Below are positions 38,784 to 54,635 of a DNA stretch of 64,000 bases, one piece after another. The stretch is from an uncultured Candidatus Rokubacteria bacterium (GTDB lineage Bacteria > Methylomirabilota > Methylomirabilia > Rokubacteriales > CSP1-6). The position numbers were made by a program, and so were the translations under genes. Numbering within the stretch: position 1 is the stretch's first letter; each line of letters begins with the position of its first letter. The stretch lies in assembly GCA_963747235.1 (NCBI GenBank), contig CAVVEU010000008.1:224001-288000 (forward strand), read 5' to 3'. Under the pieces are notes generated by a model. The model was not told the origin of the DNA. It worked only from the letters and a program-made list of their open reading frames with translations, and ran no database searches.

Positions 38784-38808
38784 GATCGGCGGATCAGCCG
38801 ACAGCGCG

Positions 38809-38835
38809 ACGCCCCGGGGTGGCCCCCCGGGGCGT
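38809..38835 (-). terminator. GC-rich hairpin after the substrate-binding gene (attenuator/stabiliser)
   Basis: ACGCCCCGGGG...CCCCGGGGCGT. Confidence 0.5.
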
Positions 38836-38867
38836 GCGAGCGGAAATCGGCGGACCGGCGGGGCGCG

Positions 38868-40143
38868 CTACTTGCGCTGGTCCCACGCGCCGAGCGGAAT
38901 CCACTTGGCGCGGTTGGTGGTGAACTCCTCCGGCCACACCGTGACGAGCTGCCCGCCCTGCCACTGGAGCATGTAGTGCTGCACGCGCGCGTTGGCGTTC
39001 TGGCCGTTCTCGTCGAACTTCACGCCCCAGCCGTTGATCGCGGAGCCGACCGGCAGGTCCATCGCCATGACCGCGGCGCGGAACTTGTCGAGGTCGTCGC
39101 TCTTGGCCGCGTCGAGCACGAGCTTGAGCAGCCACAGGCCGCCGCCCGCGAGCTGGTGCCCGCCGGCGGGGACGTCCGAGCCGGTCTTGGCCTTCACCGC
39201 CTCGCGGAACGCGCGCTCGATCTGCTGGCCCTCGGGCCGCAACTTCTCGATGATCAGGCCCGGGCCGGGCTCGAGCAGCGCGAAGGGGCCGTTGCCGTCG
39301 TTGCCGAACGCCTTGCCGAAGTCGGGCGAGCCGTAGCCGGTGGCCCCCGCGTGCACGACCGCCTTGACCTGGAAGTTCTGCTCGCGCGCCTGCCGCCAGA
39401 AGAGGATGGCGTCCTGGTTGCGCGCGATGTGGTGCAGGATGTCGGGGTTCGCGTTCTTGAGCTTGAGGATGACCGGGGTGAGGTCGTTGGTGGTGAAGGT
39501 GTAGTACTCGAGCCGCCACCTCCTGCATCCCGAACTCCTGCTTGGCCCGCTGGCGCGCGGACTCGGTCACGCTCTGGCCGTACGAGGAGTCCTCCGAGAG
39601 GTACGCGATGCGCAGCTCGCTCGTCTTCTTGCCGAGGCGGTGGGCGAGGTGCTTGGCGATGAACTCGATGTTGTACCAGCCGAACCCGGTGCCGTCGATC
39701 TCGGTCCGGAACACGTTCTTCAGCCCGCGCTTGGTGAACCGCGGATCGACGCAGGACGTCTCCCAGTAGATGACGTTCTGCCGCGACGCCGCCTCGCTGG
39801 CCGCGCCGCACAGGGTGGAGGAGAAGGTGCCGGTGATGATCTTGACCCCTTCCCGGGTGGCCAGCCGCGTGGCCTCGGAGGCGGCGACGGTCGGATCGAC
39901 CGCGTCCCCGACCACGAACACCAGCTTCTTGCCCATCACGCCGCCGCGCTCGTTGATGAGGTCGCGGACGATCTCGTAGCCCTCGAGGTGCCGCTTGCCC
40001 TCGGCCGCGAGGTTGCCGGTCAGCGGCTCCAGCACCCCGATCTTGTACTCGCCACTGAGCTGCTGCTGCGCCTGGAGGGCGCCGACGGCGCCGACCGCCA
40101 GCGCGACGAGACCCACCACCACCGCCCACTTCACTTGCCTCAT
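38868..40143 (-). CDS. Branched-chain amino acid ABC substrate-binding protein (frameshift near 39512)
   Basis: KIGVLEPLTG, INERGGVMG, GVKFDENGQN, QWQ. Confidence 0.88.
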
Positions 40144-40241
40144 GCCTGCTCTCCTCTCGTTGGTCCGGGGTACTGCGATTGGGACGGGCGCTGCGCGGCA
40201 ACCCGCTGCACCGGGCGGCCAGTGTACCGCAGGTGGCGGCC

Positions 40242-41211
40242 CTACTGCTCCTGCTGCTGCTGGGCCGCGATCTCCTCGGCGGCCAGCTTGAGCCGGTCCC
40301 GCCGGCGCTCCGGGATCTCCTGGTAGACCGGCACGTCGATCTGCTCCATCTCCTCGTGCAGCGCCGAGATGTCCTTGGGGGTGGACTCCTGGGTGCGCAC
40401 CTCGGTGCGCAGCGTCTCGTCCGCGTTGCCGCGGAAGATGCCCTTGTTGGGCGGCACGTCGTCGTAGTGGCGGCCGTGGCCCACCACCACGTAGTGGCCG
40501 TCGATCTCCCGGTTGTGGGTCGGATCGAACGGCACCCAGCCCGCGGACGGCGAGTAGAACTCCACCCACGCGTGGCTCTGGGCGGTCTCGGCCCTCGCGC
40601 GGCGGCATGTGCAGGTAGCCGCTCACGTAGCGGCAGGGGATCTGGCGCAGCCGCAGCAGGCCGAGCATGAGGTGGGTGAAGTCCTGGCAGACGCCCGCCC
40701 CCGCGGCGAGGAAGTCGTCGCTGGTGGAGTCGTAGCTGGTCACGTTCTTCTGGTAGGTGAAGTGCTCGTGGATGTGCCGCCCGCAGGCGCGCACCTGCTC
40801 GCCGAGCGGCGCGTTGGCGGGGGCGACCACGCCCTGCGCGAACTTGCGCAGCCCCGCGCTCGCCCGCACCGGCCCGTCGAAGGCGAGGAAGTCGAGCAGC
40901 GGGTAGGGCGGCTCCGGGTAGGGGCGCGCGTCGGTGACGGCGGCCAGCGCGGGCGCGGCGGGATGGGTGCTCACCGCGGAGCGCGCCACCACCTCGATCC
41001 GGTCGTGGAAGTGGACGATCGTGAAGTGGTGCACCACGTTGTGGTTCCAGTCCCGGTAGCGCGAGGTCTTGGTCGGCGGGCCCACCGCGAGCACGAAGGA
41101 CTGGAGCGTCTGGTCCCCGGTGGTCTTGGGCTGCATGCGCAGCTCGAGGAACGACTCGCGGATGTAGGCGTCGTAGGCCAGCGACAGGGTGTGCTCGATC
41201 TCGACGAACAC
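40242..41211 (-). CDS. Transglutaminase family protein (frameshift near 40590)
   Basis: GVCQDFTH, RYVSGY, HAWVE, FDPT; Gln-rich C-terminus. Confidence 0.9.
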
Positions 41212-41221
41212 GGCGGCGTCC

Positions 41222-42181
41222 TCAGGTCCCGAAGTACACGGTGGAGACCGCGTCGTGGGCGCGGCCCAGCTCGACGAGGACGTGATCGAGGAAGGACAGG
41301 CTCTGCCCCTCGCGGATCAGGTCGTGCCCCTGGTAGGAGAGCTCGGCGGCCAGCTTGCCCACGATCCGCACCGACTGGCTCAGGTCGCTCGCGCTCGAGA
41401 TGCGGTCGAGGTACTCCTTGACCGCGGTGACGCCGTAGCGCACCGAGCGGGGCGTCTGCGCGTCGAAGAGCAGGAACTGCAGCACGTCGATCGGCTCGAG
41501 GCGGGCCCCGAAGACCTTCCGGTAGTTCTCGAGCGAGGAGAGCCCGCGCAGGAGGCTGCGCCACTGGCTGTAGAAGAGCGGCAGGTCGATCTTGGGCTCG
41601 GCGGCCACCAGCGCGGGCAGCTTGGTGCGAAGGATGACGGTGGTGCGGAACACCCGCTCGAACGACTCGCCGAGCTTGAGGAAGAGCCAGCCCGCGTCGC
41701 GGGTCAGGGTGTGCTCGATCGCGCCCACCGCGCTCAGGATGCCGCGATGGGTCGCCTGCATCGCGGTGCGAAACGTCGCGGGATCCGAGAGGCGGCGCCG
41801 GTTGAAGGCCTCGAGCTCCCGGTAGGTCTCGTTGAGGTTGATGAAGCACTCCAGCGTCAGGGCCTCGCGCACCGAGCGGGCGTTGTCGCGCGCCTTCTTG
41901 AGCGAGTGGAAGACCGAGTAGCGGTTCTCGGGATCGATGGAGAGCCCCAGCAGGGTGGTGGCGGCGAGCCCGGCCAGGTGCCGGGCCGGGGGCTCGTCCT
42001 CCGGGAACCCCGGGAAGATCGCGCGCACGTCCTCCCACTCGCAGCGGGCGAGCTGCTCGTCGAGCCCGAGCACCTCGGTGGAGAGCTCCTCGGTCACCAG
42101 GAGCAGGCGCGTGGTGTTCTCGGCGCGCTCCAGGTAGCGCCCCATCCAGTAGAGCCCGTCCGCGACGCGGGAGAGGATCAT
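41222..42181 (-). CDS. Alpha-E domain protein
   Basis: LSRVADGLYWMGRYLERAEN, ARDNAR..RE, G...ER, PRS. Confidence 0.9.
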   Translation of the reverse strand: MILSRVADGLYWMGRYLERAENTTRLLLVTEELSTEVLGLDEQLARCEWEDVRAIFPGFPEDEPPARHLAGLAATTLLGLSIDPENRYSVFHSLKKARDNARSVREALTLECFINLNETYRELEAFNRRRLSDPATFRTAMQATHRGILSAVGAIEHTLTRDAGWLFLKLGESFERVFRTTVILRTKLPALVAAEPKIDLPLFYSQWRSLLRGLSSLENYRKVFGARLEPIDVLQFLLFDAQTPRSVRYGVTAVKEYLDRISSASDLSQSVRIVGKLAAELSYQGHDLIREGQSLSFLDHVLVELGRAHDAVSTVYFGT

Positions 42182-43614
42182 GGCTCGCGCGGCGCGAGGA
42201 CCCAGGTGTCCTTGCTGCCCCCGCCCTGGGAGGAGTTCACCACGTAGGAGCCCTCGCGGAGGGCGACCCGGGTGAGGCCGCCGGGCAGGACCCGGATGCG
42301 ATCGCCGTAGAGGATGAACGGGCGCAGGTCCACCCGGCGCGGCACGAACTTGCCCTCGATGTGGGTGGGGTGCGTGGAGAGCTGGACGAGCGGCTGGGCG
42401 ATGTAGTTGCCCGGGTTCTTCTTCATCGCGGCCAGGTAGGTCTCGCGCTCCTTGGCGGCCGCGAACGGCCCCATGAGCATGCCGTAGCCGCCCGCGTCCC
42501 CGGTGGTCTTCACCACGAGCTCGTCGAGGTGCTCGCTGATGTACTTGAAGTCGTCCTTGCGGAACCCGAGGTAGGTCGGCACCTGGGGCAGGAGCGCGTC
42601 CTCGCCCAGGTAGTACTTGATGAGGTTGGGCATGAACGCGTAGACCGACTTGTCGTCGGCCACCCCCGCGCCCGGCGCGTTGGCGAGCGCCACGTTGCCC
42701 TCGCGGTACACGTTGAGCAGGCCGGGCACGCCCAGCATGCTGTCGCGCCGGAAGGCGAGGGGATCGAGGAAGTCGTCGTCGATCCTCCGGTAGATCACGT
42801 CCACCTGGCGCTTGCCGTGGGTGCGCCGCATGAAGAGGTGATTGCCCTCCACCAGCAGGTCGCGCCCCTCCACCAGCGGCACGCCCATCTCGCGCGCGAG
42901 GAACGAGTGCTCGAAGTAGGCCGAGTTGTGGATGCCCGGGCTCAGCACGACCACCACCGGGTTCTGGCCGCGCCGCGGGGCCACGAAGCGGAGGGTCTCG
43001 AGCAGCAGGGTCGGGTAGTCCTTGATCGGGCGCACCGGGTAGGAGCCGAGGAACTCGGGGAAGACGCGGCTCAGGAGGTTGCGGTTCTCCAGCACGTAGG
43101 AGACGCCGCTCGGCACGCGGCAGTTGTCCTCGAGGACGAGGTAGTCCCCCTTGTCGTCGCGGATGATGTCGGTGCCGACCACGTGGGTGAAGATCTTGCG
43201 GGCCGGGACCACGCCGAGGAGCTCCCGCTTGTACTCCTTGCGCGACAGGATGAGGTCCGCGGGGACGATGCCGTCCTTGATGCACTTCTGGTCCTGGTAG
43301 ATGTCGGCGAGGAAGAGATTCAGCGTGGTGATGCGCTGGACGAGGCCGTCCTGGAGGCCCTTCCATTCGGCGGCGGGGATGATGCGGGGGACGAAGTCGA
43401 ACGGGAAGATGCGCTCGAGCCCGTCCTTCTCCCCGTAGACCGTGAAGGTGATGCCCTGGCTCCGCAGGGTGAGCTGCTGCAGCCGCTCGCGGCGCTCCAC
43501 GTCCTCCTTGGTGAAGGACTCGAGGATGGAGATGAGGGCCTCGTAGTGGGCGCGGGGATGGCCGTGGCGGTCGAAGACCTCGTCGAAGCCGTTCCGGGGC
43601 GCGACCCACTTCAT
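42178..43614 (-). CDS. Circularly permuted type 2 ATP-grasp protein
   Basis: GITF.VY, LEDN.RVPSG.SY, NSAYFEH, VDLRPF, NSSQGGGSKDTW. Confidence 0.93.
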   Translation of the reverse strand: MKWVAPRNGFDEVFDRHGHPRAHYEALISILESFTKEDVERRERLQQLTLRSQGITFTVYGEKDGLERIFPFDFVPRIIPAAEWKGLQDGLVQRITTLNLFLADIYQDQKCIKDGIVPADLILSRKEYKRELLGVVPARKIFTHVVGTDIIRDDKGDYLVLEDNCRVPSGVSYVLENRNLLSRVFPEFLGSYPVRPIKDYPTLLLETLRFVAPRRGQNPVVVVLSPGIHNSAYFEHSFLAREMGVPLVEGRDLLVEGNHLFMRRTHGKRQVDVIYRRIDDDFLDPLAFRRDSMLGVPGLLNVYREGNVALANAPGAGVADDKSVYAFMPNLIKYYLGEDALLPQVPTYLGFRKDDFKYISEHLDELVVKTTGDAGGYGMLMGPFAAAKERETYLAAMKKNPGNYIAQPLVQLSTHPTHIEGKFVPRRVDLRPFILYGDRIRVLPGGLTRVALREGSYVVNSSQGGGSKDTWVLAPREP

Positions 43615-43706: not shown

Positions 43707-44258
43707 ATGTCGGCCGACCCGGCCCACCCGCCGCACACCCACCTCACGCCGGAGACGATCCGCTTCTGCCCCCTCTGCGGCGCGGGCCTCGTCCGGCAGC
43801 CGGTCGGGCCCGAGAAGCGCCCGGAGATGGTGTGCCCCGGCTGCAACTTCATCTACTACGTGAACCAGAAGGTGGTCGCGGGCACCATTCCGTGGCAGGA
43901 CGGCCGCCTCCTGCTCACCCGCCGGGCGATCACTCCCGCGCTCGGCAAGTGGACGTTCCCCGGCGGCTACGTGGACTGGGGCGAGACGGTGGACGCGGGC
44001 GCGCTCCGCGAGACGTGGGAGGAGACCGGGCTCACCGTCGAGCTGGACGGGCTGATCGGCGTGTACTCCTACGCGAAGGCCCCGGTGGTCATCGTGGTCT
44101 ACGAGGCGGTCGTGACGGGCGGCACCCTGACCGTCTGTCACGAGAACGACCGCCTCGAGTGGGTGACGCCCGCGGAGATCCCGTGGGACGAGCTGGCCTT
44201 CCCGTCCACGGTGGCGGCGGTGCGCGATTTCCTGACGCGCCGGACCACCCGCGGCTGA
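43707..44258 (+). CDS. NUDIX hydrolase with N-terminal zinc ribbon
   Basis: FCPLCG...CPGC, PGG...GE......RETWEETG. Confidence 0.9.
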   Translation: MSADPAHPPHTHLTPETIRFCPLCGAGLVRQPVGPEKRPEMVCPGCNFIYYVNQKVVAGTIPWQDGRLLLTRRAITPALGKWTFPGGYVDWGETVDAGALRETWEETGLTVELDGLIGVYSYAKAPVVIVVYEAVVTGGTLTVCHENDRLEWVTPAEIPWDELAFPSTVAAVRDFLTRRTTRG

Positions 44259-44302
44259 CCGGATCCGGCTCAAGACAACGCGCTACCCACGTGACCTCGG
44301 TG

Positions 44303-44725
44303 TCACGGTCGCTCGTCCGGTGACGATCTTCTCGCCTTTCCCTTGGCGGCGGCGCGCTCGAGGAAGCGGGCGAGGTCGGCCACCATGACGCGCTCGTGCC
44401 GCCCCTCCGCGATCTTCTCCACGTCGTCCCACGCCTCGACCTCGAAGAGGTAGCGGAGGCCATCGGTCTCCCGCAGGACGGCCGTGGCGCGCACGCGCAT
44501 GCCGGGAGGCGTGGCGGCCAGATGGCGCACGTCGACGCCGGTGCCCACGGTGGCCGCGCCCGGCGCCAGGTGCGGGACCATCACCGCGTGCGCCGCGTGC
44601 TCGAGCAGGTTGATGACGAACGGGGTCGCGAAGACCGTGACGCCCGGATTGCCGAGGGCGTCGGCGGTGAGCTCGCGCGTGACGACGCGCTCCACGGTGG
44701 CGGCCTGTCCGGGCTCGAGCGGCAT
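44303..44725 (-). CDS. FlK-like hotdog thioesterase
   Basis: VFATP...LE, TVG..V.VRHLAATP.G, G.HER. Confidence 0.88.
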   Translation of the reverse strand: MPLEPGQAATVERVVTRELTADALGNPGVTVFATPFVINLLEHAAHAVMVPHLAPGAATVGTGVDVRHLAATPPGMRVRATAVLRETDGLRYLFEVEAWDDVEKIAEGRHERVMVADLARFLERAAAKGKARRSSPDERP

Positions 44726-44790
44726 GGGGTCTCTTCTTCTACCCCGATTGCCGCGCCAGGTCAACGGCCCGGGGCACGTATACTTGCCCG

Positions 44791-45970
44791 GTGCCCGTCC
44801 TCCTGGCCGCCCTCGGCGTGCTGCTCGTCTCCCTCGATTCCGCGATCAACATCGCGCTCCCCGCGATGGCCGCCGCCTTCGGGGTCGGGCCGGCGGAGAT
44901 TCGCTGGGTCATCATCTGCTACGTCCTCACCTACGCGTTCACCGCGTTCGCGGCGGGCCTGCTCGCGGATCGTCTCGGCCCCGGGCCGGTCTTCACGACC
45001 GGGCTCTGGCTCTGCGCGGCCGGCTTCGTGGGCTACGCGCTCGCCTCCTCCTACGGGACGGTGCTGCTGCTGCGCGTGGTGCAGGGCGTGGGCAGCGGGA
45101 TGGTCTACGGGACCGCGCCCGCGCTGGTGACGCTGTCGCTGCCGGCCGCGCGGCACGGCCGCGGGCTCGGCACGATGAGCCTCGGCATCGGCGTCGGCCT
45201 CGGGGTGGGCCCGGTGCTGGGCGGCCTGCTCGTGGACGGCTTCGGCTGGCCCGCCGCCTTCGTGTTCCGCGCGCCGCTGTTCCTGATCCTGGCGCTGCTC
45301 GCCCTCACGCGGTTCGGCCGGGTCGCCGGGGCCGCGCCCACGCCGCGCCGGCTCGCGCTGGCCGACCTGCTGCGCCTGCCCGTGCTCCGCGCGGGCACGC
45401 TCGCGTTCCTGTCGCAGTACGCGCAGTTCGCGGTCTGGCTGCTGATCCCGTTCTTCCTGGTGACCGCGCGCGGCCTCTCGCCCAGCGTGGGCGGCGTGGT
45501 CTTCGTGCTCACCCCGCTCGCCACCGCGCTCGCGGCGCCGCTGGGGGGGCTATTGACCGATCGCATCGGCCCGCGGTGGCCGCTCCGCATCGGGCTCGCG
45601 CTCGAGGCGGCCGGGCTGCTCGCGATCGGCGCGGTCAGCGAGACGACGCCGATCGCGCTCCTCGGCGCCGCCATGGCCCTGGTGGGCTTCGGGGCCGGCC
45701 TCTTCCAGGTGCCGAACCTGGCCCTGATGATGGCCGCGTTTCCGCCCGCGCAGCAGGGCGCGGCGGGCGGGCTCGCGTTCCTCGGGCGCACGCTGGGGAG
45801 CGCGGTGGGCGTGCAGGCGACCGGGCTGCTCTTCGCGGCGCGACTGCCGCGCGACGGCTTTCTCGCCGCCTTCCACGCGGCCTTCCTGGCCGCCGGCCTC
45901 GTGTGCGTCCTCGCGGCGGCTGCTGGCGCTGCTGCCGGCCCGGTCGTCCGCCCCGCGCGGCGGCCGGTGA
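44791..45970 (+). CDS. MFS transporter 1
   Basis: LDSAINIALP, LADRLG; probable true stop TGA at 45968 after a 1-nt indel near 45918. Confidence 0.8.
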
Positions 45971-47181
45971 GCGTGCGCGGCTCGCCGTACCGGTGGGCGA
46001 TCCTCGCGGTCTGCGTCGCGGGCTTCATGCAAACCCACGTGCATCGCGTCGGCTTCGCCCCGCTGATCCCGACCTTCATCGCGGACATGGGGCTCACCTA
46101 CGCGGCGGCGGGGACCATCATGGCCGCGTACTTCTGGAGCTACGCGGTGATGCAGATCCCGGTCGGCGTGCTCACCGACCGGCTCGGCGCGCGTCGCGTG
46201 ATGCTCGGCTGCATGGGCGTGATGGCGGTGGGCGCGGTGGCCTTCTCCCTGAGCCACAGCTATGCCGAGAGCCTGATCGCGCGCTGCCTGCTCGGCACGG
46301 GCGCGGCGGCCACCTGGCTGCCGGGCCTGCGCCTGATCCAGGAGTGGTTCGAGCCGCGCGAGCGTGGCCTCGCGACCGGGCTCTTCTCGGCGGGCGGCGG
46401 CGTGGGCGCCACCACCGCCCTGCTGCTCCTGCCGATCATGGCCCAGCATCTCGGCTGGCGGGTGGGCTACGCGCTGCTCGCGGTGCCGGTGCTGGGCACC
46501 ATGGCCGCGGTCTGGTTCCTCGTGCGGGCCGAGCCCCGCGAGCGCGCCGCCGGCGCGGTGGCGGGCGTGCCGACCCAGTTCCTCGCCGCGATGCGCGAAG
46601 TGCTCGCGACGCCCGCGCTCTGGCCGTTCAACCTCTACGTGATCTTCTCCTACGGCGGCTACTTCGCCCTGCTCACCTGGCTGCCGACCTTCCTCGTGAG
46701 ATCGGAAGGGCTGACCCAGGCCGGCGCGGGCTTCGTGACCGCCCTCATCACCGGTGGCACCATCGTGTCGTGGCCGCTGGCCGGGTACCTGTCCGATCGC
46801 TTCGGGCGCCGCAAGCCGATCTTCCTGGTGAGCCAGGCCGCGAGCGTGCTGGTGTGCCTGGCCTTCGCCTACCTGGTACCGGGTACCGGGCTCGCGGGCG
46901 CGGCGGCGGTCGCCGCGTGCGCCGGGCTCCTCCTCGGGGGCCTGATCACGCCGTTCGTGATGGTGACCGAGCTGGTGCCGCCGCGCCTGATGGGGACCGC
47001 GTCCGGCGTGGTCAACGCCTTCTGCTTCGTGGGCGGGCTGCTGGTGCCGGTGGCGCTGGGCTACGCGCTCGACGTGACCGGAAGCTTTCCCGTCGCCTTC
47101 GCCGCCTGCGCGGTCTTCGAGGTGGTGGCCCTCGCCATCGGCATGTTTGCGCGGGAAACCGGACGCCGGGCCGCGGTATGA
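45967..47181 (+). CDS. MFS transporter 2
   Basis: GTGA overlap; QIPVGVLTDRLGAR, WFEPRERG, LSDRFGRRK. Confidence 0.82.
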   Translation: MSVRGSPYRWAILAVCVAGFMQTHVHRVGFAPLIPTFIADMGLTYAAAGTIMAAYFWSYAVMQIPVGVLTDRLGARRVMLGCMGVMAVGAVAFSLSHSYAESLIARCLLGTGAAATWLPGLRLIQEWFEPRERGLATGLFSAGGGVGATTALLLLPIMAQHLGWRVGYALLAVPVLGTMAAVWFLVRAEPRERAAGAVAGVPTQFLAAMREVLATPALWPFNLYVIFSYGGYFALLTWLPTFLVRSEGLTQAGAGFVTALITGGTIVSWPLAGYLSDRFGRRKPIFLVSQAASVLVCLAFAYLVPGTGLAGAAAVAACAGLLLGGLITPFVMVTELVPPRLMGTASGVVNAFCFVGGLLVPVALGYALDVTGSFPVAFAACAVFEVVALAIGMFARETGRRAAV

Positions 47182-47189
47182 TGGCGGCC

Positions 47190-48779
47190 ATGGAGATCCT
47201 CGACCCGGTCGGCTCGACTGCAGCAGCGTCCCGGACGCTCGCCCCGCGGCCCGCCACGCTGGCGGGCGCGGTCATCGGCGTGCTCGACAACTCGAAGCCC
47301 AATGCCCGCGTCCTGCTGGAAGGCGTGGCCCGCGCGCTCGCCCAGAAGGTCGGGGCGCGCGACGTGAAGATCTGGGGCAAGCCCGGCGCCTCCATCGGCG
47401 CCACCACCGCCGTCCTCGACGAGATCGCCGCGCAGTGCGGCGCCGTCCTCACCGCCTCCGCCGACTGAGGGTCGTGCACGTCGTGGAGTATCCACGACGC
47501 CACGCAGCTGGAAGGGCGGGGGATCGCCACCGTCGTCCTGGGCACGCATGAGTTCCGCCCGCTCGCGCTCGCCGAGGCGAAGGCCAAGGGGCTTCCCGAT
47601 CTCGGCATCGTCACGGTGCCGCATCCCATCGGCGGCATCGCCGAGAAGCTCGTCGCGGACAAGGCGCTGAACGCGGTGGACGCGGTGCTGGCCGCGCTCA
47701 CCCGCGGCGCGGCGGCCGGCGCCGGCGCGGGAGCGGTCGAGGGCGCGGTCGCCCGGCACCGGGTCCCGGACGATCTGCTCGACTTCCAGGGCTTCATGAT
47801 GGAGCGCGGCTGGGGCGACGGGCTGCCGATGATCCCGGCGACGCCCGAGCGCGTCGCGGCCATGCTCGCGGGCACCGGCCGGCCCGCGGGCGATCTGGTG
47901 GCGATCCTGCCGCCGCGGCTCGGCCGCGCGACGGTGGAGCGCGTCGCGGTCAACGCGGTGCTGGCCGGCGCGCTGCCCGAGCATTTCCCGGTCATCCTGG
48001 CCGCGGTCGAGGCGGTGGCGCAGCCCGCGTTCAACCTCCAGGCGATCCAGACCACCACGCATCCCTGCTCGCCGCTGATCATCGTCAACGGGCCGATCGC
48101 GGCGCGGCTCGGCATCAACGGGGCGGGCAACGCGCTCGGGCAGGGCCATCGCGCCAACGCGGTGATCGGGCGCGCGCTGCGGCTGGTGCTGCAGAACACC
48201 GGCGGGGCGCGGCCGGGGAGCGAGGACCGCGCCACCCAGGGCCATCCCGGCAAGTACAGCTACTGCGTCGCCGAGAACGAGGCCGCCTCGCCGTGGGAGT
48301 CGCTGTCGGTGGAGCGCGGGTTCCCGGCGGAGGTGAGCACGGTGACGGTGTGCGCCTCCGAGAGCCCGCACAACATCAACGACCACGGCTCGTTCACCCC
48401 CGAGGGCATCCTCACCACGGTGGCGGGCACGGCGGCGACGGTCGGCTCCAACAACATCTACCTGGGCGGCGAGCCGCTGGTGATCCTGGGGCCGGAGCAC
48501 GCGGCCACCGTGGCGGGCGGAGGCTGGAGCAAGGCGGATTTCAAGCGCGCGCTCTGGGAGCGGGCGCAGGTGCCGCTCTCGCGCTTCGACCCCGCGAACC
48601 TGGCGCGCTTCGAGGTCATTCATCCGGCCGGGTTCAAGGACCGGCCGCCCGAGACGCTGGCCCCGCTCGCGCGGGCGTGGACCGACATCATGATCGTGGT
48701 GGCGGGCGGGGCGGGCAAGCACTCCGTGCTGATCCCCACCTTCGGGGCCACGCGCTCGGTCACGCTCCGGATCGGGTAG
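47190..48779 (+). CDS. UGSC selenoprotein fused to an uncharacterised GWxDGLP partner domain (about 529 aa)
   Basis: MEILDP..LDNSKPN...SAD-TGA(47466)-GSC, continuing in frame to PHPIGG and GWGDGLP...NAVLAG...GHPGKY...ENE..SPW. Confidence 0.88.
47479..47499 (+). promoter_or_regulatory. Putative SECIS hairpin
   Basis: CGTCGTGG-AGTAT-CCACGACG beginning at the 11th nt after TGA. Confidence 0.75.
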
Positions 48780-50406
48780 GGGCGTAGAGGCGGGCGAAGT
48801 ACTCCCGCACCATGCGATCCGAGCTGAAGCGCTCGGTCGCCATCCGGATCGACGCGCGCATCATGGTGGTCCAGCGCGCGGGATCCGCGAACGCGGGCAG
48901 GACGAGGCCCTCGAGCGTGTCGTAGAGCGAGTCCAGGTCGCGCGGGTCCGGATCGGCCGGGGTCGTCTCGTCGCCGATCGCCCAGCCGGTGACGCCGTGC
49001 TCGCAGCCCTCCGGCCACCAGCCGTCGAGCACCGAGAGGTTCAGCGTGCCGTTCATCGCCGCCTTCATCCCGGACGTGCCGCTGGCTTCCATCGGGCGGC
49101 GCGGCGTGTTCAGCCACACGTCGGCGCCGCGGGTGAGCACGCGGCCGAGCGCCATGTCGTAGTCCTCGAGGAACGCCACGCTCTCGGGCCACTGGCGCAG
49201 CGCGGCCACGAGCCGGGCGATCACCGCCTTGCCCTCGTGATCCGCCGGGTGCGCCTTGCCCGCGAAGAGGACCTGGACGCGGTGCCGCTTGACCAGGGCC
49301 GCGAAGCGCTCCGGATCGCGCAGCAGCAGGTCGGGCCGCTTGTAGGTCGCGGCGCGCCGCGCGAAGCCGATGGTGGGCGCGGCCGGATCGAGCCGCACCC
49401 CGGTGCGCGTCCGCACCTCCGCGAGCAGCTCGGCCTTGAGCGCGCGCTTGGCCGCCAGCAGCCGCTCGTCGCTCGCCTGCGCGGCCGGGATGCGCGCGTC
49501 CTGCCAGGTCCCGGCGTGGACCCCGTTGGTGATCGCGATGATGGGCGCCGCGTCCTTCACGTGCGCCCACATGACGCGCGCGGTCTCGCCGTGGAGCTGC
49601 GCCACCGCGTTGGCCAGGTGGGCCAGTCGCAGGCCGGCCACCGTCATGTTGAACGGGTCGCCGCCGATCTCGGCCAGCTCGCTCGGCACCAGCTCGCAGC
49701 CGGCCCCGAGCCGTCGCAGGTCCGCGAGGGGGTGCACCTCGTTGCCCGCGGGCACCGGGGTGTGGGTGGTGAAGACGATGCGCTCGCGCGCGGCGAGCCA
49801 CGCCTCCCGGAAGGTCTGCCCGGCCTCCATGCGGTCGGCGATCATCTCGATGCCCGCGAAGACGGCGTGGCCCTCGTTGAAGTGGTAGCGCTCGACCGGC
49901 AGGTGGAGCGCGCGGAGCGCCCGCACCCCGCCGATGCCCAGCAGCATCTCCTGCGCCACGCGGCAGTCCGGGCGCGGGTCGTAGAGGCGGCGGGTGATCC
50001 AGAGATCGCGCGGATCGGTGGGCTCGAGCAGGTAGAGCGGGGCGATCGCGTAGCGGCCCACACGCCAGACACGGCACTCGACCTCGCGCGCCGCGACCCG
50101 CACGCGCACGCGCGCACCGGTGTCGGTGAGCACGTCGGGTTTCTGGTCGGTCCACTCGTCGTGGGGATAGCCGTCGGCGCCGATGTGCTGGGAGGTGTAG
50201 CCCTGGCCCCAGCGGAGCCCGATGCCGACCACGGGCAGGCCGAGGTCGCCCGCCGACTTCATGAAGTCGCCCGCGAGCACGCCGAGGCCGCCCGCGTAGG
50301 AGTGGAACTCCTCGTGCAGGCCGTACTCCATCGAGAAGTAGGCCACCAGCGGAAGGCGGGCCGGGACGTTCAACGGGGCGATCTCACATTTCCGAGCATA
50401 GGACAT
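48760..50406 (-). CDS. glgP: Alpha-glucan (glycogen/maltodextrin) phosphorylase, compact form
   Basis: YFSMEYG, GGLGVLAGD, HFNEGH, TNGVH, EASGTSGMK. Confidence 0.9.
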   Translation of the reverse strand: MSYARKCEIAPLNVPARLPLVAYFSMEYGLHEEFHSYAGGLGVLAGDFMKSAGDLGLPVVGIGLRWGQGYTSQHIGADGYPHDEWTDQKPDVLTDTGARVRVRVAAREVECRVWRVGRYAIAPLYLLEPTDPRDLWITRRLYDPRPDCRVAQEMLLGIGGVRALRALHLPVERYHFNEGHAVFAGIEMIADRMEAGQTFREAWLAARERIVFTTHTPVPAGNEVHPLADLRRLGAGCELVPSELAEIGGDPFNMTVAGLRLAHLANAVAQLHGETARVMWAHVKDAAPIIAITNGVHAGTWQDARIPAAQASDERLLAAKRALKAELLAEVRTRTGVRLDPAAPTIGFARRAATYKRPDLLLRDPERFAALVKRHRVQVLFAGKAHPADHEGKAVIARLVAALRQWPESVAFLEDYDMALGRVLTRGADVWLNTPRRPMEASGTSGMKAAMNGTLNLSVLDGWWPEGCEHGVTGWAIGDETTPADPDPRDLDSLYDTLEGLVLPAFADPARWTTMMRASIRMATERFSSDRMVREYFARLYAPTRSGA

Positions 50407-50426
50407 ACGGCAAGTAACGCAAAGTT

Positions 50427-50590
50427 ACCGGGGCGGGGCCGCGGGGGCGGCAGGTGGGCCGGGTGATCCGTTCCCCGCCCCCGCGAGCCCGGAGGCTCGC
50501 GATGCCGGATTGGGAACTCCTCGCGCAAGAGAACGAGCACGCGGGTCGTGATCAGAGGCCCACCTGCCGCCCCCGCGGCCCCGCCCCGGT
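50427..50590. repeat. Structured repeated element with perfect 34-bp terminal inverted repeats (MITE-like or ncRNA)
   Basis: 50427-50460 is the exact reverse complement of 50557-50590; core shared with about 15880-15955. Confidence 0.8.
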
Positions 50591-50598
50591 CGCGCCGG

Positions 50599-51864
50599 CT
50601 AACGTCTGGGCTTCCACGGATGCGTGATGAGGCGGGCGCCGCGCTGCCAGCTCATGTAGGCCCACGCCCACTCGAAGAGGACGAGGAACCGATTGCGGAA
50701 GCCGATCAGGAACATGATGTGCACGAAGAGCCAGGCGAGCCACGCGGGCAGGCCGTGGAGCTGGAGGCGGCCGACCACCGCGACCGCGGCGGCCCGGCCG
50801 ATGGTGGCCATGCTGCCCTTGTCGCGGTAGCGGAAGGGCCGGGTCGGCAGCCCGGCGAGGCGCCGTCGCACGTTCGCCGCGACGGCCTGGCCCTGCTGGA
50901 TGGCCACCGGCGCCAGGCCCGGGAGCGGGTGGCCGTCGGGCCCGCGGACGCTCGACATGTCGCCGATGGCGAACACCATGGCGTGGCCGGGGATCGAGAG
51001 ATCCGGCTCCACGAGCACCCGGCCCGCGCGATCGAGCGGCACGCCGAGCGAGCGCCCGAGGGGCGCGGCGGCCACCCCCGCCGCCCACAGCACGGTGCGC
51101 GCGCGGATCTGCTCGCCGCCGAGCCACACCGCGTCGTGCGTCACCTGCGTGACCGGGGCGCCGGTGCGGATCTCGACTCCGAGGCGCGCGAGGGCAGCGG
51201 CCGCGTGGGCCGACAGTGGCGCGGGAAAGGTCGCGAGCAGGCGCGGCCCGGCCTCGACCAGGACGATCCGCGCCTTCGTCGGATCGATGAGCCGGAAGTC
51301 CCGCGCGATGGTCTCGCGCGAGATCTCCGCGAGCGCGCCCGCGAGCTCGACCCCGGTCGGCCCGCCGCCGATGACCACGGAGGTCAGGAGCGCCCGCTGC
51401 TCGGCCCCGTCCCGCTCGCGCTCCGCGTCCTCGTAGGCCAGCAGCACGCGGCGCCGGATCTCGAGCGCGTCCTCCAGGCTCTTGAGACTCGGGGCGAGCT
51501 CCTCCCAGTCGTCGTGGCCGAAGTAGGAGTTGCCCGCGCCCGCGGCGAGCACCAGCGCGTCGTAGGTCAGCTCCCCCTCGTCCAGGATGACGCGCCGGCC
51601 GGCCAGGTCCACCGACCGGACCTCGGCGAGCAGCACCGTGATGTTGGCGGCGCGCCTCAGGATCGAGCGGAGCGGCGTCGCGATGTCCGACGGATTGAGC
51701 GCGGCGGTGGCGACCTGGTAGAGCAGGGGCTGGAAGAGGTGGTGGTTGCGCCGATCGAGGAGCGTGACCCGGGCCCAGCTCCCCGCGAGCGCGCGCGCGG
51801 CGTAGAGCCCGCCGAATCCGCCGCCGACGATGACCACGTGCGGGCGCCGCGCGGGAGTGTTCAC
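50599..51864 (-). CDS. ndh: Type II NADH dehydrogenase-like NAD(P)/FAD oxidoreductase
   Basis: GGGFGG, FQPLLYQVATA, GGGPTGVELAG, AIGD, KGSMATIGR. Confidence 0.9.
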   Translation of the reverse strand: MNTPARRPHVVIVGGGFGGLYAARALAGSWARVTLLDRRNHHLFQPLLYQVATAALNPSDIATPLRSILRRAANITVLLAEVRSVDLAGRRVILDEGELTYDALVLAAGAGNSYFGHDDWEELAPSLKSLEDALEIRRRVLLAYEDAERERDGAEQRALLTSVVIGGGPTGVELAGALAEISRETIARDFRLIDPTKARIVLVEAGPRLLATFPAPLSAHAAAALARLGVEIRTGAPVTQVTHDAVWLGGEQIRARTVLWAAGVAAAPLGRSLGVPLDRAGRVLVEPDLSIPGHAMVFAIGDMSSVRGPDGHPLPGLAPVAIQQGQAVAANVRRRLAGLPTRPFRYRDKGSMATIGRAAAVAVVGRLQLHGLPAWLAWLFVHIMFLIGFRNRFLVLFEWAWAYMSWQRGARLITHPWKPRR

Positions 51865-51971
51865 GAGGCCATCTTCCGAGGGCGCCCGAGGGGTGTCAAC
51901 CCTTGACAGGACGTGGGGTTGGCCCTAGGGTGACCTTCGATACGAGGAGCGGGGGACAGGAGGGTGAAGGC

Positions 51972-53015
51972 ATGGCCACGCGCATCAGCTCCCAGCGGTA
52001 TGCCGTCGAGGACTTCCACGAGGCGCTCGAGCTCTGCTACAGCCGGGGGTGGACCGACGGGCTGCCGGTCGTGCCGCCCACGGAGCCGGCGGTGCGCGCG
52101 ATGCTCGACGCGGTGGGGCTCGAGCCCGACGCGCAGGTGGCCTTCATCACGAACCGCCAGGCGGCCATCAGCGCCGAGAAGGTGGCGATCAACGCGGTGA
52201 TGGCGGGTTGTCGGCCCGAGCACATGCCGGTGGTGCTGGCCGCGGTCGAGGGCATCGCGGACCCGCGCTGGGGCTATCACGGGCCGGCCACGTCCACCGG
52301 CGGCGCGGGCGTCCTGATGATCGTCAACGGGCCCATCGCGCGGCGGCTCGACTTCAACTGCGGCGACAACCTGTTCGGCCCGGGCTGGCGCTCCAACGCC
52401 ACCGTCGGGCGCGCGGTGCGCCTGGTGATGCGCAACGTGATCGGCACCATTCCGGGCCGTCTCGACCGCGGCACGGTGGGCCACCCCGGCAAGTACACCT
52501 ACGTGATCGCGGAGAACGAGGCGGAGAGCCCGTGGACGCCGCTGCACGTGGAGCGCGGTTGCCGGCCCGAGGACAGCGCGGTGACGGTGATGGCCGCGCT
52601 GGGACCGCATCAGTTCTATAACCAGCTCTCCGCCACCGCGGCCGGTGTGCTCGGCACGATGTGCGACGCCATGCGCTACCCCGGCATGGTGGGCCAGCCG
52701 AACTACTGCGTCGTCCTGGCGGGCGAGCACATGCGGACCATCGCGGCGGACGGCTGGTCCAAGTCCGACATCCGCAAGTACGTCTTCGAGAACAGCACGA
52801 ACACGATCGCGCATCTGAAGCGGACCGGCCGGCTGCCCGGCGCGATCAAGCCGGAGGACGAGACCGCGACCCGGCCCCTGGTGATGAGCCCGGACGACCT
52901 GCTGGTGGTGGCGGCGGGCGGTCGCGCCGGCTCGTTCTCGTGCTTCATCCCGGGCTGGGCGAGCCGGACATCGTCGCAGGCGGTGACCACGGTGATCAAA
53001 GAGAGGAGACCATGA
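51972..53015 (+). CDS. Uncharacterised UGSC-partner protein (GWTDGLP family)
   Basis: GWTDGLPVVPPT, NAVMAGC, VNGP, NATVGRA, GHPGKY, ENE.ESPW; paralogous to the C-terminal domain of 47190..48779. Confidence 0.85.
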   Translation: MATRISSQRYAVEDFHEALELCYSRGWTDGLPVVPPTEPAVRAMLDAVGLEPDAQVAFITNRQAAISAEKVAINAVMAGCRPEHMPVVLAAVEGIADPRWGYHGPATSTGGAGVLMIVNGPIARRLDFNCGDNLFGPGWRSNATVGRAVRLVMRNVIGTIPGRLDRGTVGHPGKYTYVIAENEAESPWTPLHVERGCRPEDSAVTVMAALGPHQFYNQLSATAAGVLGTMCDAMRYPGMVGQPNYCVVLAGEHMRTIAADGWSKSDIRKYVFENSTNTIAHLKRTGRLPGAIKPEDETATRPLVMSPDDLLVVAAGGRAGSFSCFIPGWASRTSSQAVTTVIKERRP

Positions 53016-53554
53016 TGGCGGGTTTCGAGATCCTGGATCCGACGGTCGAGCCCCGGCGCCAGCCGCTGACGTACGTGGCGCGGCCGGACTCGCTCAAGGG
53101 CAAGCGCATCGGCCTGGTGGAGAACACCAAGTACAACTCGGACAAGCTGCTGGTGAAGATCGGCGACATCCTGAAGCGGGAGTACGGCGCCTCCGAGACG
53201 CGGATGTGGCGCAAGCACAACTCCGGGGTGCCCGCGCACGCGGAGATCATCGAGGAGGCCAAGCGCACCGTCGACGTCGTCGTCGCCGGCATCGGCGACT
53301 GAGGGTCCTGCTCGTCGGGCAGTGTGCTCGACGGAATAGTGTTCGAGAAGGTCGGCATCCCGGCCGCGTCCATCGTCACCGATGTGTTCGAGGCCACCGG
53401 CCACGCCATGGCCCAGTCCTGGGGCGTCCCGGAGTACCGCTTCCTGGCCCTGCCACATCCCATCGCGAACCTCAGCGAAGCCGACCTCGACGCCCGCGCC
53501 CGCGCGATCGCGCCCGAGGTCGTCCGACTGCTCCTGAAAGGCCAAGAAGGCTAA
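53012..53554 (+). CDS. UGSC family selenoprotein (180 aa)
   Basis: AGGAG RBS; EILDP..ENTKYN...GIGD-TGA(53300)-GSC in frame with 53324..53554 (EKVGIP, LPHPIANL). Confidence 0.9.
53313..53333 (+). promoter_or_regulatory. Putative SECIS hairpin
   Basis: CGTCGGGC-AGTGT-GCTCGACG beginning at the 11th nt after TGA. Confidence 0.75.
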
Positions 53555-53663
53555 AGCACAGAGCAGTAGACGGTTGTCCGCCATCTGGGGGAGCGCGGGG
53601 GCCATTTCTGGGCCCCCGCGTATGAACAGAGCTTAAAGAATTAAGCGAATATACGCAGAACGA

Positions 53664-54635
53664 ATGCCCGCGGACTACGCCCCCCCGTTCTGGTACCGCG
53701 GCCGACACCTCCAGACGCTCTGGGGGCCGCTGCTGCGCCACTGGCGGCGGCCCCCGCTGCGCCGGGAGCGCCTGCACACGCCGGACGGCGACTTCCTCGA
53801 CCTGGACTGGCTCGCCGGCGCGCCCGAGCGCGGCCCGCTGATCCTGATCCTCCACGGCCTCGAGGGCTCGGCGCGCTCGCACTACGCGCGGGGTCTGCTG
53901 CGAGGCGCGGGGGCGCTCGGCTGGCGGGCGGCGGTCATGCACTTCCGTTCGTGCAGCGGCGAGGTCAACCGGCTGCCGAAGCTCTATCACTCGGGCGAGA
54001 CGTCCGACCTCGAGTGGGTGATCGGCGAGCTGGCCAAGCGGGAGGCCGCGCCGCGCATCGGACTGGTGGGGGTCTCCCTCGGCGGCAACGTCGCGCTCAA
54101 GTGGCTCGGCGAGCAGGGGGAGGCGGCGCCGGCCGAGATCCGGGCCGCGGCCGCCATCTCGACGCCGTTCGATCTGGCCGCCTGCGCCCGCGTGCTCGAT
54201 CAGGGCTTCAACCGTGCGGTCTACACCGAGAGCTTCCTGCGCACCATGAAGGCCAAGATCCGCGCCAAGCGGCACCTCTACGACGGCCGCCTGGACGTGG
54301 ACGCGGCGCTCCGGGCGCGCACCTTCACGGAGTACGACCGGTTCTTCACCGCCCCGGTCAACGGCTTCGCCGACGAGGTCGACTACTGGGCGCGGGCGAG
54401 CAGCGCGCCGTATCTCGAGCGTATCCGGCGCCCCACGCTCCTGATCAACGCGATGAACGATCCGTTCATGCCGGCGGCGTGCCTGCCGACCGCGGTGGTG
54501 GAGCGGTCGCCATGGCTCGAGGCGGCCTTCGTCGCCGAGGGCGGGCACGTGGGGTTTCTCGACGGGGCGCTCGGGCGCGCGTCGTGGGCGGAGCGCCGCG
54601 CGCTCGCCTTCCTGGCGCGCCATCTGCTACGATGA
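53664..54635 (+). CDS. YheT family alpha/beta hydrolase
   Basis: HLQT, HGLEGS, FRSCSG, GVSLGGN, GGHVGF. Confidence 0.9.
   Translation: MPADYAPPFWYRGRHLQTLWGPLLRHWRRPPLRRERLHTPDGDFLDLDWLAGAPERGPLILILHGLEGSARSHYARGLLRGAGALGWRAAVMHFRSCSGEVNRLPKLYHSGETSDLEWVIGELAKREAAPRIGLVGVSLGGNVALKWLGEQGEAAPAEIRAAAAISTPFDLAACARVLDQGFNRAVYTESFLRTMKAKIRAKRHLYDGRLDVDAALRARTFTEYDRFFTAPVNGFADEVDYWARASSAPYLERIRRPTLLINAMNDPFMPAACLPTAVVERSPWLEAAFVAEGGHVGFLDGALGRASWAERRALAFLARHLLR

Follow-up and report, generated by a model that had tools for sequence, protein, structure and literature searches.

Two copies of a UGSC selenoprotein and its partner, one fused and one split, in a Rokubacteria genome: a candidate two-part selenoenzyme

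The stretch of DNA analysed here, 64,000 nucleotides from an uncultured Candidatus Rokubacteria bacterium (GenBank assembly GCA_963747235.1, contig CAVVEU010000008.1, positions 224,001 to 288,000; hereafter the window, numbered from its first letter), contains two genes that are each crossed by an in-frame TGA at a U-G-S-C motif. Each of these UGSC genes is joined to a copy of the same second domain, here called the partner. This raises the question of whether the TGA codons are read as selenocysteine (Sec) and, if so, what the UGSC protein and its partner do together. We propose that they form a two-part, GrdB-like selenoenzyme acting on imported organic acids, a reading to which we give an even chance. 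The window would then hold two paralogous copies of such an enzyme.

The description of the locus in an earlier sequence-only reading was confirmed in all the details that could be checked, including the positions and contexts of both TGA codons. The first copy is a fusion, encoded at 47178..48779 (+) and delimited by its frame, its possible starts, the scores of its UGSC part and the identity of its partner part to the separate partner protein, P0002. The UGSC domain of this gene lies at 47187..47711 (+), a hidden Markov model (HMM) match to UGSC profile positions 2-176, and its partner domain at 47754..48776 (+). Between the two parts the only stop in 47190-48779 is the TGA at 47466..47468 (+), in the context SAD-U-GSC, where it would encode U93 counted from 47190. 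The translation from 47190, with TGA read as Sec, is 529 aa long and is referred to as P0001. The gene had been placed at 47190-48779; the fusion in a single frame holds, but 47178 is the more likely start, since the resulting N-terminus, MMAAMEILDP, resembles the MMAGFEILDP of the split copy and since this start creates a second ATGA overlap, with the stop (47179-47181) of the open reading frame (ORF) upstream. In the second copy the parts are separate genes with the partner upstream, as had been described. P0002 (51972..53015, +; 347 aa) is followed by the UGSC protein P0003 (53012..53554, +; 180 aa), whose start codon at 53012-53014 overlaps the partner stop at 53013-53015 as ATGA. The TGA of P0003 lies at 53300..53302 (+), in the context IGD-U-GSC, and would encode U97 counted from 53012. 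That one partner domain is common to both copies was borne out by the alignment of P0001 residues 194-526 with P0002 residues 13-334 (41% identity, E 1e-71).

At the level of sequence, both genes are confirmed as genuine UGSC selenoprotein genes. They exceed the cut-off of the NCBIfam family NF041046 (130.8 bits for the fused and 142.2 bits for the split copy; cut-off 125) and that of Pfam PF24696 by a wide margin (167.2 bits, E 5e-49, and 195.2 bits, E 1.2e-57, respectively; cut-off 25). The UGSC profile matches cross the TGA in both ORFs, spanning residues 2-171 and 6-175, so that the homology claimed to continue past each TGA is real. The genome, which is metagenome-assembled (42 contigs, 88% complete), encodes all four components of the Sec machinery whose presence had been put forward as a check: selA (578 bits), selB (365 bits), selD (228 bits) and tRNA-Sec (69.3 bits; gathering score 47), the tRNA being clustered with selA and selB on contig 14. 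The selD matches are pieced across frames, in two pieces at C27:46033-46945 and in three at C8:303114-303868, the latter about 15 kb past the window end; they suggest either frameshifts or a second, broken selD-like gene. Among 74 UGSC matches beside partner genes, including the two of the window, the Sec column holds TGA in 73 and TGC in one, which excludes chance and answers another of the proposed checks, that of Cys or Sec at this column in homologues. The sole TGC gene is that of Candidimonas nitroreducens (locus L059). Database proteins close to UGSC end at the TGA, and full-length Cys forms are at most 61% identical.

Both TGA codons are followed by a SECIS-like (selenocysteine insertion sequence) hairpin with a 9-bp stem beginning 13 nt past the U of UGA, at 47479..47499 (+) with a GUA triloop and at 53313..53333 (+) with a GUG triloop, as indicated by folding, conservation and covariation. 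At 67 of 72 TGA sites in homologues (one of the 73 sites, that of L031, was dropped at a contig end) a GUN triloop 22 nt downstream is closed by an uninterrupted run of 6 or more pairs, whereas the TGC homologue formed no pairs at all. In an alignment of 67 distinct sequences (A4; five of the 72 were left out as duplicates of retained rows) 83.9% of the cells of the helix were paired, the figure for shuffles being 77.6%, and the covariation score of 0.168, against 0.067 in shuffles, was reached by none of 500. Double changes were seen at pair 21-27 (CG 60, GC 7) and at pair 19-29 (UA 47, GU 12, AU 4, CG 1). Since the sequences are related and the region is coding, this covariation is support for the hairpin and not proof. 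At least 22 sequencing runs matching part of 51900-53600 are listed, six of them recorded as RNA, from which we draw no conclusion on expression, habitat or support for TGA at the level of reads. That the TGAs are instead true stops, sequencing errors or pseudogene lesions between unrelated ORF halves could appeal to the incompleteness of a metagenome-assembled genome and to the frame breaks in some of its paralogues, but we rate its probability as virtually nil: outside the window, 71 of 72 linked UGSC genes have TGA at the same column and homology both before and after it, each of the 150 listed matches to UGSC in related genomes has exactly one TGA, the hairpin is conserved where TGA is present and absent where it is TGC, and the Sec machinery is complete, so that sequencing error or pseudogene formation is excluded on these comparisons.

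The next step is to ask how constant the association between UGSC and partner is. A search with the split-type partner gave at least 596 matches, of which the 80 best were taken as loci, a sample biased towards the split type. These loci belong to Methylomirabilota, Burkholderiales, Dehalococcoidia, other Chloroflexota, Acidobacteriota, Binatia, Poribacteria, Entotheonella, SAR324 and others, and hold 85 partner copies. A UGSC gene was found on the same strand within 1.5 kb of 68 of them, in the arrangements partner-first separate (59), partner-first fused (1), UGSC-first fused (4) and UGSC-first separate (4); four further copies were cut by a contig end. The reverse selection gave a similar picture, with an adjacent partner at 26 of 28 loci picked by UGSC alone from related genomes (one best match per genome, mostly split-copy orthologues and not independent; locus L198, whose genome is unpublished, was left out). 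In the window's own genome all nine UGSC matches adjoin a partner, and each has exactly one TGA. Across the class, UGSC was found in 42 of 61 genomes, and all 28 genomes of the window's own family have it (both tallies include one unpublished genome), the copies per genome in the family numbering 2-12.

Fusions tell the same story. UGSC sequence is carried by 29 of the 150 best partner representatives in a library clustered at 50% identity, and these comprise complete UGSC-partner fusions (533-563 aa) that have C-G-x-C or have lost the motif, products starting just past the Sec position (410-453 aa), and partner-first products of about 460 aa that end in ...G-D exactly before the Sec position. 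By these translations, UGSC-partner fusions exist in both orders. The co-occurrence that the neighbourhood survey was expected to reveal is therefore present both as fusion and as adjacency. On a tree of 98 partner domains (a quick maximum-likelihood IQ-TREE search, midpoint-rooted for drawing only) 7 changes are needed to account for the UGSC-first order, of which well-supported branches force 6 or more, and the window's two partner copies fall in separate, well-supported clades. Since the linkage has been kept through repeated rearrangement and fusion, it is the strongest evidence that both parts act together.

The partner itself belongs to a large family with few clues from annotation. P0002 matched no Pfam or NCBIfam family in profile scans, and a Pfam scan of all 77 members of the partner alignment A3 gave single-member matches only (best E 0.026). 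In the cluster library 5286 representatives were matched at E 1e-3 and 1230 at 1e-30; another search returned at least 8000 candidates, all within E 1e-3, the listed matches being without a Pfam domain. Where listed partner matches are named at all, the name is "hypothetical protein". In P0002 numbering the family conserves a G-W-x-D-G-L-P...P-P-T motif at residues 26-37, A-G-C at 78-80, Pro121, an invariant Arg147 and H-P-G-K-Y at 171-175, Cys80 being kept by 81 of the 87 copies at the loci and by 145 of the 150 best representatives. The cluster library also has proteins, about 710 aa long, in which the partner unit occurs twice. In the ESM Atlas the partner found only its own clusters, one of which is automatically named "Thioredoxin family protein"; in a cluster at score 0.89, PF24696 is annotated on 16% of members.

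The AlphaFold2 model of P0002 is of high confidence (predicted local distance difference test, pLDDT, 95.7; predicted template modelling score, pTM, 0.94). Foldseek found only matches of low template modelling (TM) score for it in the PDB, the best being class I fumarate hydratase (TM 0.25), with cyanuric acid hydrolases and PurM/SelD-like proteins among the others. In a VIA-align comparison with 48,161 chains the highest Z was 5.8; 7 chains reached Z 5 and none reached 8, where noise lies at 7-8, and the partner profile had no match among PDB sequences at E up to 10. As far as the predicted model can tell, the partner has no clear structural relative; we assign it no fold and do not claim that its fold is novel. 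We also considered self-cleavage at the conserved Gly79-Cys80, which was pure speculation and was set aside; in the model this site separates two helices, and Cys80 is Ala in the window's fused copy.

In a clade of Poribacteria and an uncultured bacterium (L052, L053, L058, L060, L062 and L075) the partner occurs with no UGSC within 3-6 kb on each side and lacks profile positions ~280-312. This form of the partner may act by itself or pair with a different protein. Of the 11 partner copies in the window's own genome, 4 are broken by frame into two to five pieces (C19:7552-8570, C40:390198-391198, C13:49231-50269 and C14:138038-139071), and these are either decaying paralogues or metagenome-assembly indel errors.

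What kind of protein is UGSC? GrdB and PrdB are the substrate-specific selenoprotein B subunits of the glycine, sarcosine, betaine and D-proline reductases, in which Sec attacks a substrate bound to the partner subunit and a Cys resolves the adduct. The sequence-only reading had pointed to a likeness between UGSC and this family, and the profile comparison upheld it. An hhalign alignment of 87 UGSC sequences (omitting the frame-shifted P0299, matches with other than one stop and those shorter than 160 aa) with GrdB-like sequences from 27 of 30 loci (three that end early after Sec were omitted) gave a probability of 95.7% and E 8.9e-9 over 96 columns, with Sec placed on Sec. UGSC 76-178 aligned to GrdB-like 327-426, which is the Sec-bearing C-terminus. 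For comparison, E was 0.017 in the best of 20 column-shuffled controls, 0.31 when the alignment was reversed and 0.19 when that of the partner was used instead. With the greedy setting the alignment reached the first UGSC strand and gained no score.

The motifs agree with this alignment. In the PF07355 genes of relatives, TGA lies in T-U-G-[TS]-x right past the Pfam match in 30 of 30 full-length genes, and is followed by E-x-E-R-x-G-[IL]-P some 13-20 residues on and by a PHP-like motif about 46 on; the G18-I19-P20 of UGSC has a spacing equal to that of the GrdB-like motif. In both families Sec has the same surroundings, namely a strand, a U-G-[ST]-C or related motif, a helix with E..G-I-P, and PHP, in this order. 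On this evidence UGSC and the Sec-bearing domain of GrdB/PrdB are very probably distant homologues, UGSC being the shortened one. By profile, UGSC is not a member of PF07355, and at ~175 aa against ~435 aa it falls below PF07355 detection. The likeness extends to gene order, both being two-part systems in which the gene for the other subunit stands upstream of the selenoprotein gene: a PF09338 (GrdE/PrdA) gene precedes the GrdB-like gene in 25 of 30 loci of relatives, which matches the commonest UGSC arrangement, partner first.

PF07355 matches occur in 99 of 151 genomes of the phylum (a tally that includes one unpublished genome). The window's genome has two more PF07355 selenoproteins, of ~400 aa, that are unlike the full-length genes of relatives in comprising the C-terminal half only and in having U-P-x-C; one is on C29 (L106, ORF at locus 1435-2628), with T-P-T-U-P-F-C, and the other on C8 near 471100 (L107), with V-P-S-U-P-V-C. 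Beside the GrdB-like/PF09338 pair in relatives L142, L145, L147 and L157, on the downstream side of the GrdB-like gene, there is a DsbA-like ORF with an in-frame TGA in S-D-Y-L-U-P-W-C, and the ORF at the corresponding place in L149 has a DSBA-like thioredoxin domain by score. Judging from its sequence, this ORF is a possible selenoprotein redox partner of the reductase-like genes.

The AlphaFold2 model of P0003 (pLDDT 91.5) consists of five beta-alpha units and places Sec after strand 3, ahead of helix 3; its structural matches are Rossmann/flavodoxin-like proteins such as short-chain dehydrogenases/reductases (SDRs), receiver domains and TIR domains, with Z up to 10.1 and 89 chains at Z of at least 8. 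No thioredoxin was among the top 50 matches, an absence from the list that does not exclude the fold. Among PDB sequences the UGSC profile found only an oxalyl-CoA decarboxylase (E 1), and a GrdB-like protein found no match at E up to 0.01. Since no solved GrdB/PrdB structure could be found by sequence in the PDB copy used, the fold searches could not show the kinship. A search of the ESM Atlas with a Cys-type UGSC gave no match.

From these elements a mechanism may be put together. The UGSC part would be a Rossmann/flavodoxin-like alpha/beta domain of ~175 aa whose Sec-Gly-Ser-Cys starts helix 3, after strand 3. The partner, of ~340 aa, would hold the substrate pocket, with the invariant Arg147, the conserved His171 and Lys174 and the near-invariant Cys80. 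The two parts would act as a unit, either as one polypeptide in either order or as the products of adjacent, translationally coupled genes. By analogy with PrdB, Sec would attack the substrate held by the partner, the Cys three residues past Sec would resolve the adduct to a selenenylsulfide, and a cellular thiol system would re-reduce it. The substrates would probably be small imported carboxylic acids that differ between paralogues. We infer the physical contact of the parts, the catalytic role of Sec, the reductive chemistry, the class of substrate and the electron donor. Likewise, the role of the partner as substrate activator is one that we infer.

Several observations weigh against this reading. 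Pairing with UGSC is not universal. Of the 85 partner copies, 13 have no adjacent UGSC although the sequence extends 1.5 kb or more to either side, and these include the whole Poribacteria clade mentioned above; in the window's genome two of 11 partner copies stand alone, one of them frame-broken. The claim that the pairing is obligate is therefore not sustained. Several paralogues in the window's genome have frame breaks. In three of seven full-length fusions without Sec, both Sec and Cys have been lost from the UGSC motif while the partner motifs are kept, and the fused gene of the window, like its orthologues, has Ala in place of Cys80 of the partner. Among the neighbours at the 80 loci no gene for a thioredoxin or a reductase is conserved, and the NDH-2-like gene at 50599-51864 (-), considered as electron donor, was rejected, being conserved only in the nearest relative, L026.

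The comparison with GrdB also has its limits. The PF07355 profile, which covers ~347 positions upstream of Sec, matched neither P0001 nor P0003 at E up to 1, and the UGSC and partner HMMs had no match in 32 GrdB-like loci. Against a single GrdB-like protein of this genome (P0328) the UGSC alignment gave an hhalign probability of 0.13% and E 0.44, and in the comparison that was significant the GrdB-like sequences came from a single phylum and the shuffles numbered only 20. The partner does not resemble the GrdE-like proteins (hhalign probability 0.1%, no PF09338 match), results by which a pyruvoyl-type partner was ruled out; no pyruvoyl-forming site is evident in it. GrdB chemistry needs a carbonyl cofactor, to which there is no visible counterpart here. 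Since the partner is unrelated to GrdE/PrdA, substrate activation must differ if the chemistry is GrdB-like, and this is the weakest link of the reductase reading. The hosts differ as well, those of UGSC being, by their record titles, mostly soil and marine heterotrophs and not amino-acid-fermenting clostridia.

Other functions have to be set against the two-part reductase. The most serious alternative, which we still consider rather unlikely, is that UGSC is a dedicated selenol/thiol-disulfide oxidoreductase that re-reduces Cys80 of the partner, the partner being the sole catalyst. Peroxiredoxins and methionine sulfoxide reductases that are fused to thioredoxin or glutaredoxin offer a parallel, the UxxC motif is typical of redox couples, and a Cys80 as widely conserved as that of the partner would suit such a role. 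UGSC has also been treated as a likely redox protein, as far as the available text goes (PMC2398784). However, in the fused gene of the window and in its orthologues the UGSC part retains Sec and Cys while position 80 is Ala, and fusions that have lost the UGSC Sec and Cys retain Cys80. Since Cys80 and the Sec/Cys motif have been lost independently in different lineages, the case for a private reductant is weakened, and the homology to the catalytic Sec segment of GrdB/PrdB favours substrate chemistry over disulfide exchange.

It is less likely still that the module is a non-redox enzyme, an isomerase, epimerase or lyase, in which Sec, with or without Cys80, acts as nucleophile or acid/base and no external reductant is needed. 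Such an enzyme would agree with the finding of no conserved reductant gene nearby and with weak structural echoes of the partner in class I fumarate hydratase (Z 4.8, 179 residues), L-serine dehydratase and iminodisuccinate epimerase, but these matches are at noise level, as are all those of the partner, and the second Cys of UGSC, invariant in alignment A2, is a better fit to a resolving Cys. Very improbable is a carrier or delivery protein for selenium, sulfur or a metal; Sec/Cys pairs can bind metals, and in Foldseek the partner weakly matched PurM/SelD-like proteins (E 7e-3, TM 0.14), but matches of TM below 0.2 are not meaningful, the neighbours are organic-acid transporters and enzymes and not metal or selenium genes, and up to 12 paralogues per genome better suit a diversity of substrates.

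Returning to the GrdB-like two-part enzyme, a wider form of it can be envisaged, which we consider possible while leaning against it. UGSC and its partner would form a large class of two-component selenoenzymes, each with a minimal GrdB-like Sec domain and a catalytic subunit of new fold, that cleave C-X bonds reductively in many imported organic acids. It is in the same tentative spirit that we suggest a Stickland-type chemistry with no pyruvoyl subunit in aerobic soil and ocean heterotrophs, with up to a dozen paralogues per genome, each with its own substrate. The heterotrophs concerned would include Rokubacteria, SAR202-type Dehalococcoidia, Burkholderiales and Binatia.

The system had been put forward as undescribed, which it is not, at least in part. 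The UGSC-containing family was listed in 2008 by Zhang & Gladyshev (PLoS Genet, PMC2398784) with 255 Sec and 21 Cys sequences in the Global Ocean Sampling (GOS) data, where it stood third in Table 2 of the survey and was the most used family in non-marine samples. It then had no Pfam domain and was given a "likely Trx-like fold", and its fusion to a conserved domain, "Unknown_1", was reported there (Fig. S1A; PMC2398784). This domain is most likely the partner. Thus the selenoprotein family was already known, and the fusion probably was too. In the available text of other papers UGSC is "a selenoprotein of unknown function" (2007 Olavius paper, PMC1976440, where Hyphomonas neptunium is named among its carriers), is given no function (2022 review, PMC9312934) and is counted among selenoproteins with uncharacterised functions (2026 review, PMC13188914).

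The window proteins are not in themselves different from the known family, having the same U-G-S-C motif and SECIS hairpin, and the great excess of Sec over Cys forms in the GOS data (PMC2398784) recurs here. The 2008 account differs from ours in its likely Trx-like fold, against the predicted Rossmann/flavodoxin-like fold of the model, and in the parts available it describes the UGSC/Unknown_1 fusion only, with nothing on operon linkage, reverse fusions, the size of the partner family or a link to GrdB (PMC2398784). No link to GrdB/PrdB was found in the accessible literature that mentions UGSC. Nor did the same sources mention a near-constant partner from a very large family, fusions in both orders, the expansion of paralogues, a non-thioredoxin fold, or homology to the GrdB/PrdB Sec domain.

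These points matter, UGSC being among the most abundant prokaryotic selenoproteins of ocean and freshwater metagenomes as far as the survey text goes (PMC2398784). Three handles are now available, namely one specific partner that is nearly always present (at least 5286 cluster representatives, no Pfam model), a Sec segment homologous to that of GrdB/PrdB, and cultured carriers in Sheuella amnicola NBD-18 (TGA form) and Candidimonas nitroreducens SC-089 (TGC form). They turn an 18-year-old orphan selenoprotein into a concrete biochemical hypothesis that can be tested as a two-part enzyme. If the chemistry is GrdB-like, selenium-dependent reductive cleavage would extend well beyond anaerobic amino-acid fermenters, and the need of abundant soil and marine heterotrophs for selenium would be easier to understand.

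The genes around the module provide the basis for the proposed class of substrates. Directly upstream of the fused copy is a probable context gene, a 796-aa ORF with two major facilitator superfamily (MFS) transporter units (44791..47181, +; Pfam MFS_1 E 2.5e-110, 4 stretches), and an MFS homologue in this position was also found in L030 and L031. Transporter genes of this family had been noted there, and they are kept in two relatives. The two units are complete with no stop between them, and the corresponding position in L030 and L031 is taken by single MFS genes of ~390-500 aa; the double ORF is either a natural tandem fusion or the result of a lost stop or assembly frame error. Divergent from the MFS gene is a probable FlK-like hotdog thioesterase gene (44303..44764, -; PF22636 E 4e-31), homologues of which adjoin the module in L030, L031, L035 and L084.

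At the 80 loci the commonest neighbours were SDR (22), NHL-repeat protein (17), FlK-like thioesterase (9), luciferase-like monooxygenase (9) and CoA-transferase III (8), with ABC, GMC oxidoreductase, amidase and TctC genes found more rarely. Other paralogues of the window's genome adjoin genes for TRAP DctM, SBP_bac_5, EamA (twice), TctB and CoA-transferase III with IclR, and also SDR, amidohydrolase, DHDPS-like, thiolase-like and ketopantoate-reductase-like proteins. The neighbours therefore vary by copy and, judging from their family assignments, are mostly genes for the uptake or conversion of small organic acids.

A scan of 44000-54000 gave no promoter-like sites and three terminator-like sites against 1.7 expected. 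The NDH-2-type flavoprotein gene mentioned above (Pyr_redox_2 plus NDH2_C) is divergent from the split module, with a gap of 107 bp. Further upstream in the window, at 38794-43609 (-), are transglutaminase-like domains (Bact_transglu_N, Transglut_core), a periplasmic binding domain and an Alpha-E domain, which are unrelated to the module.

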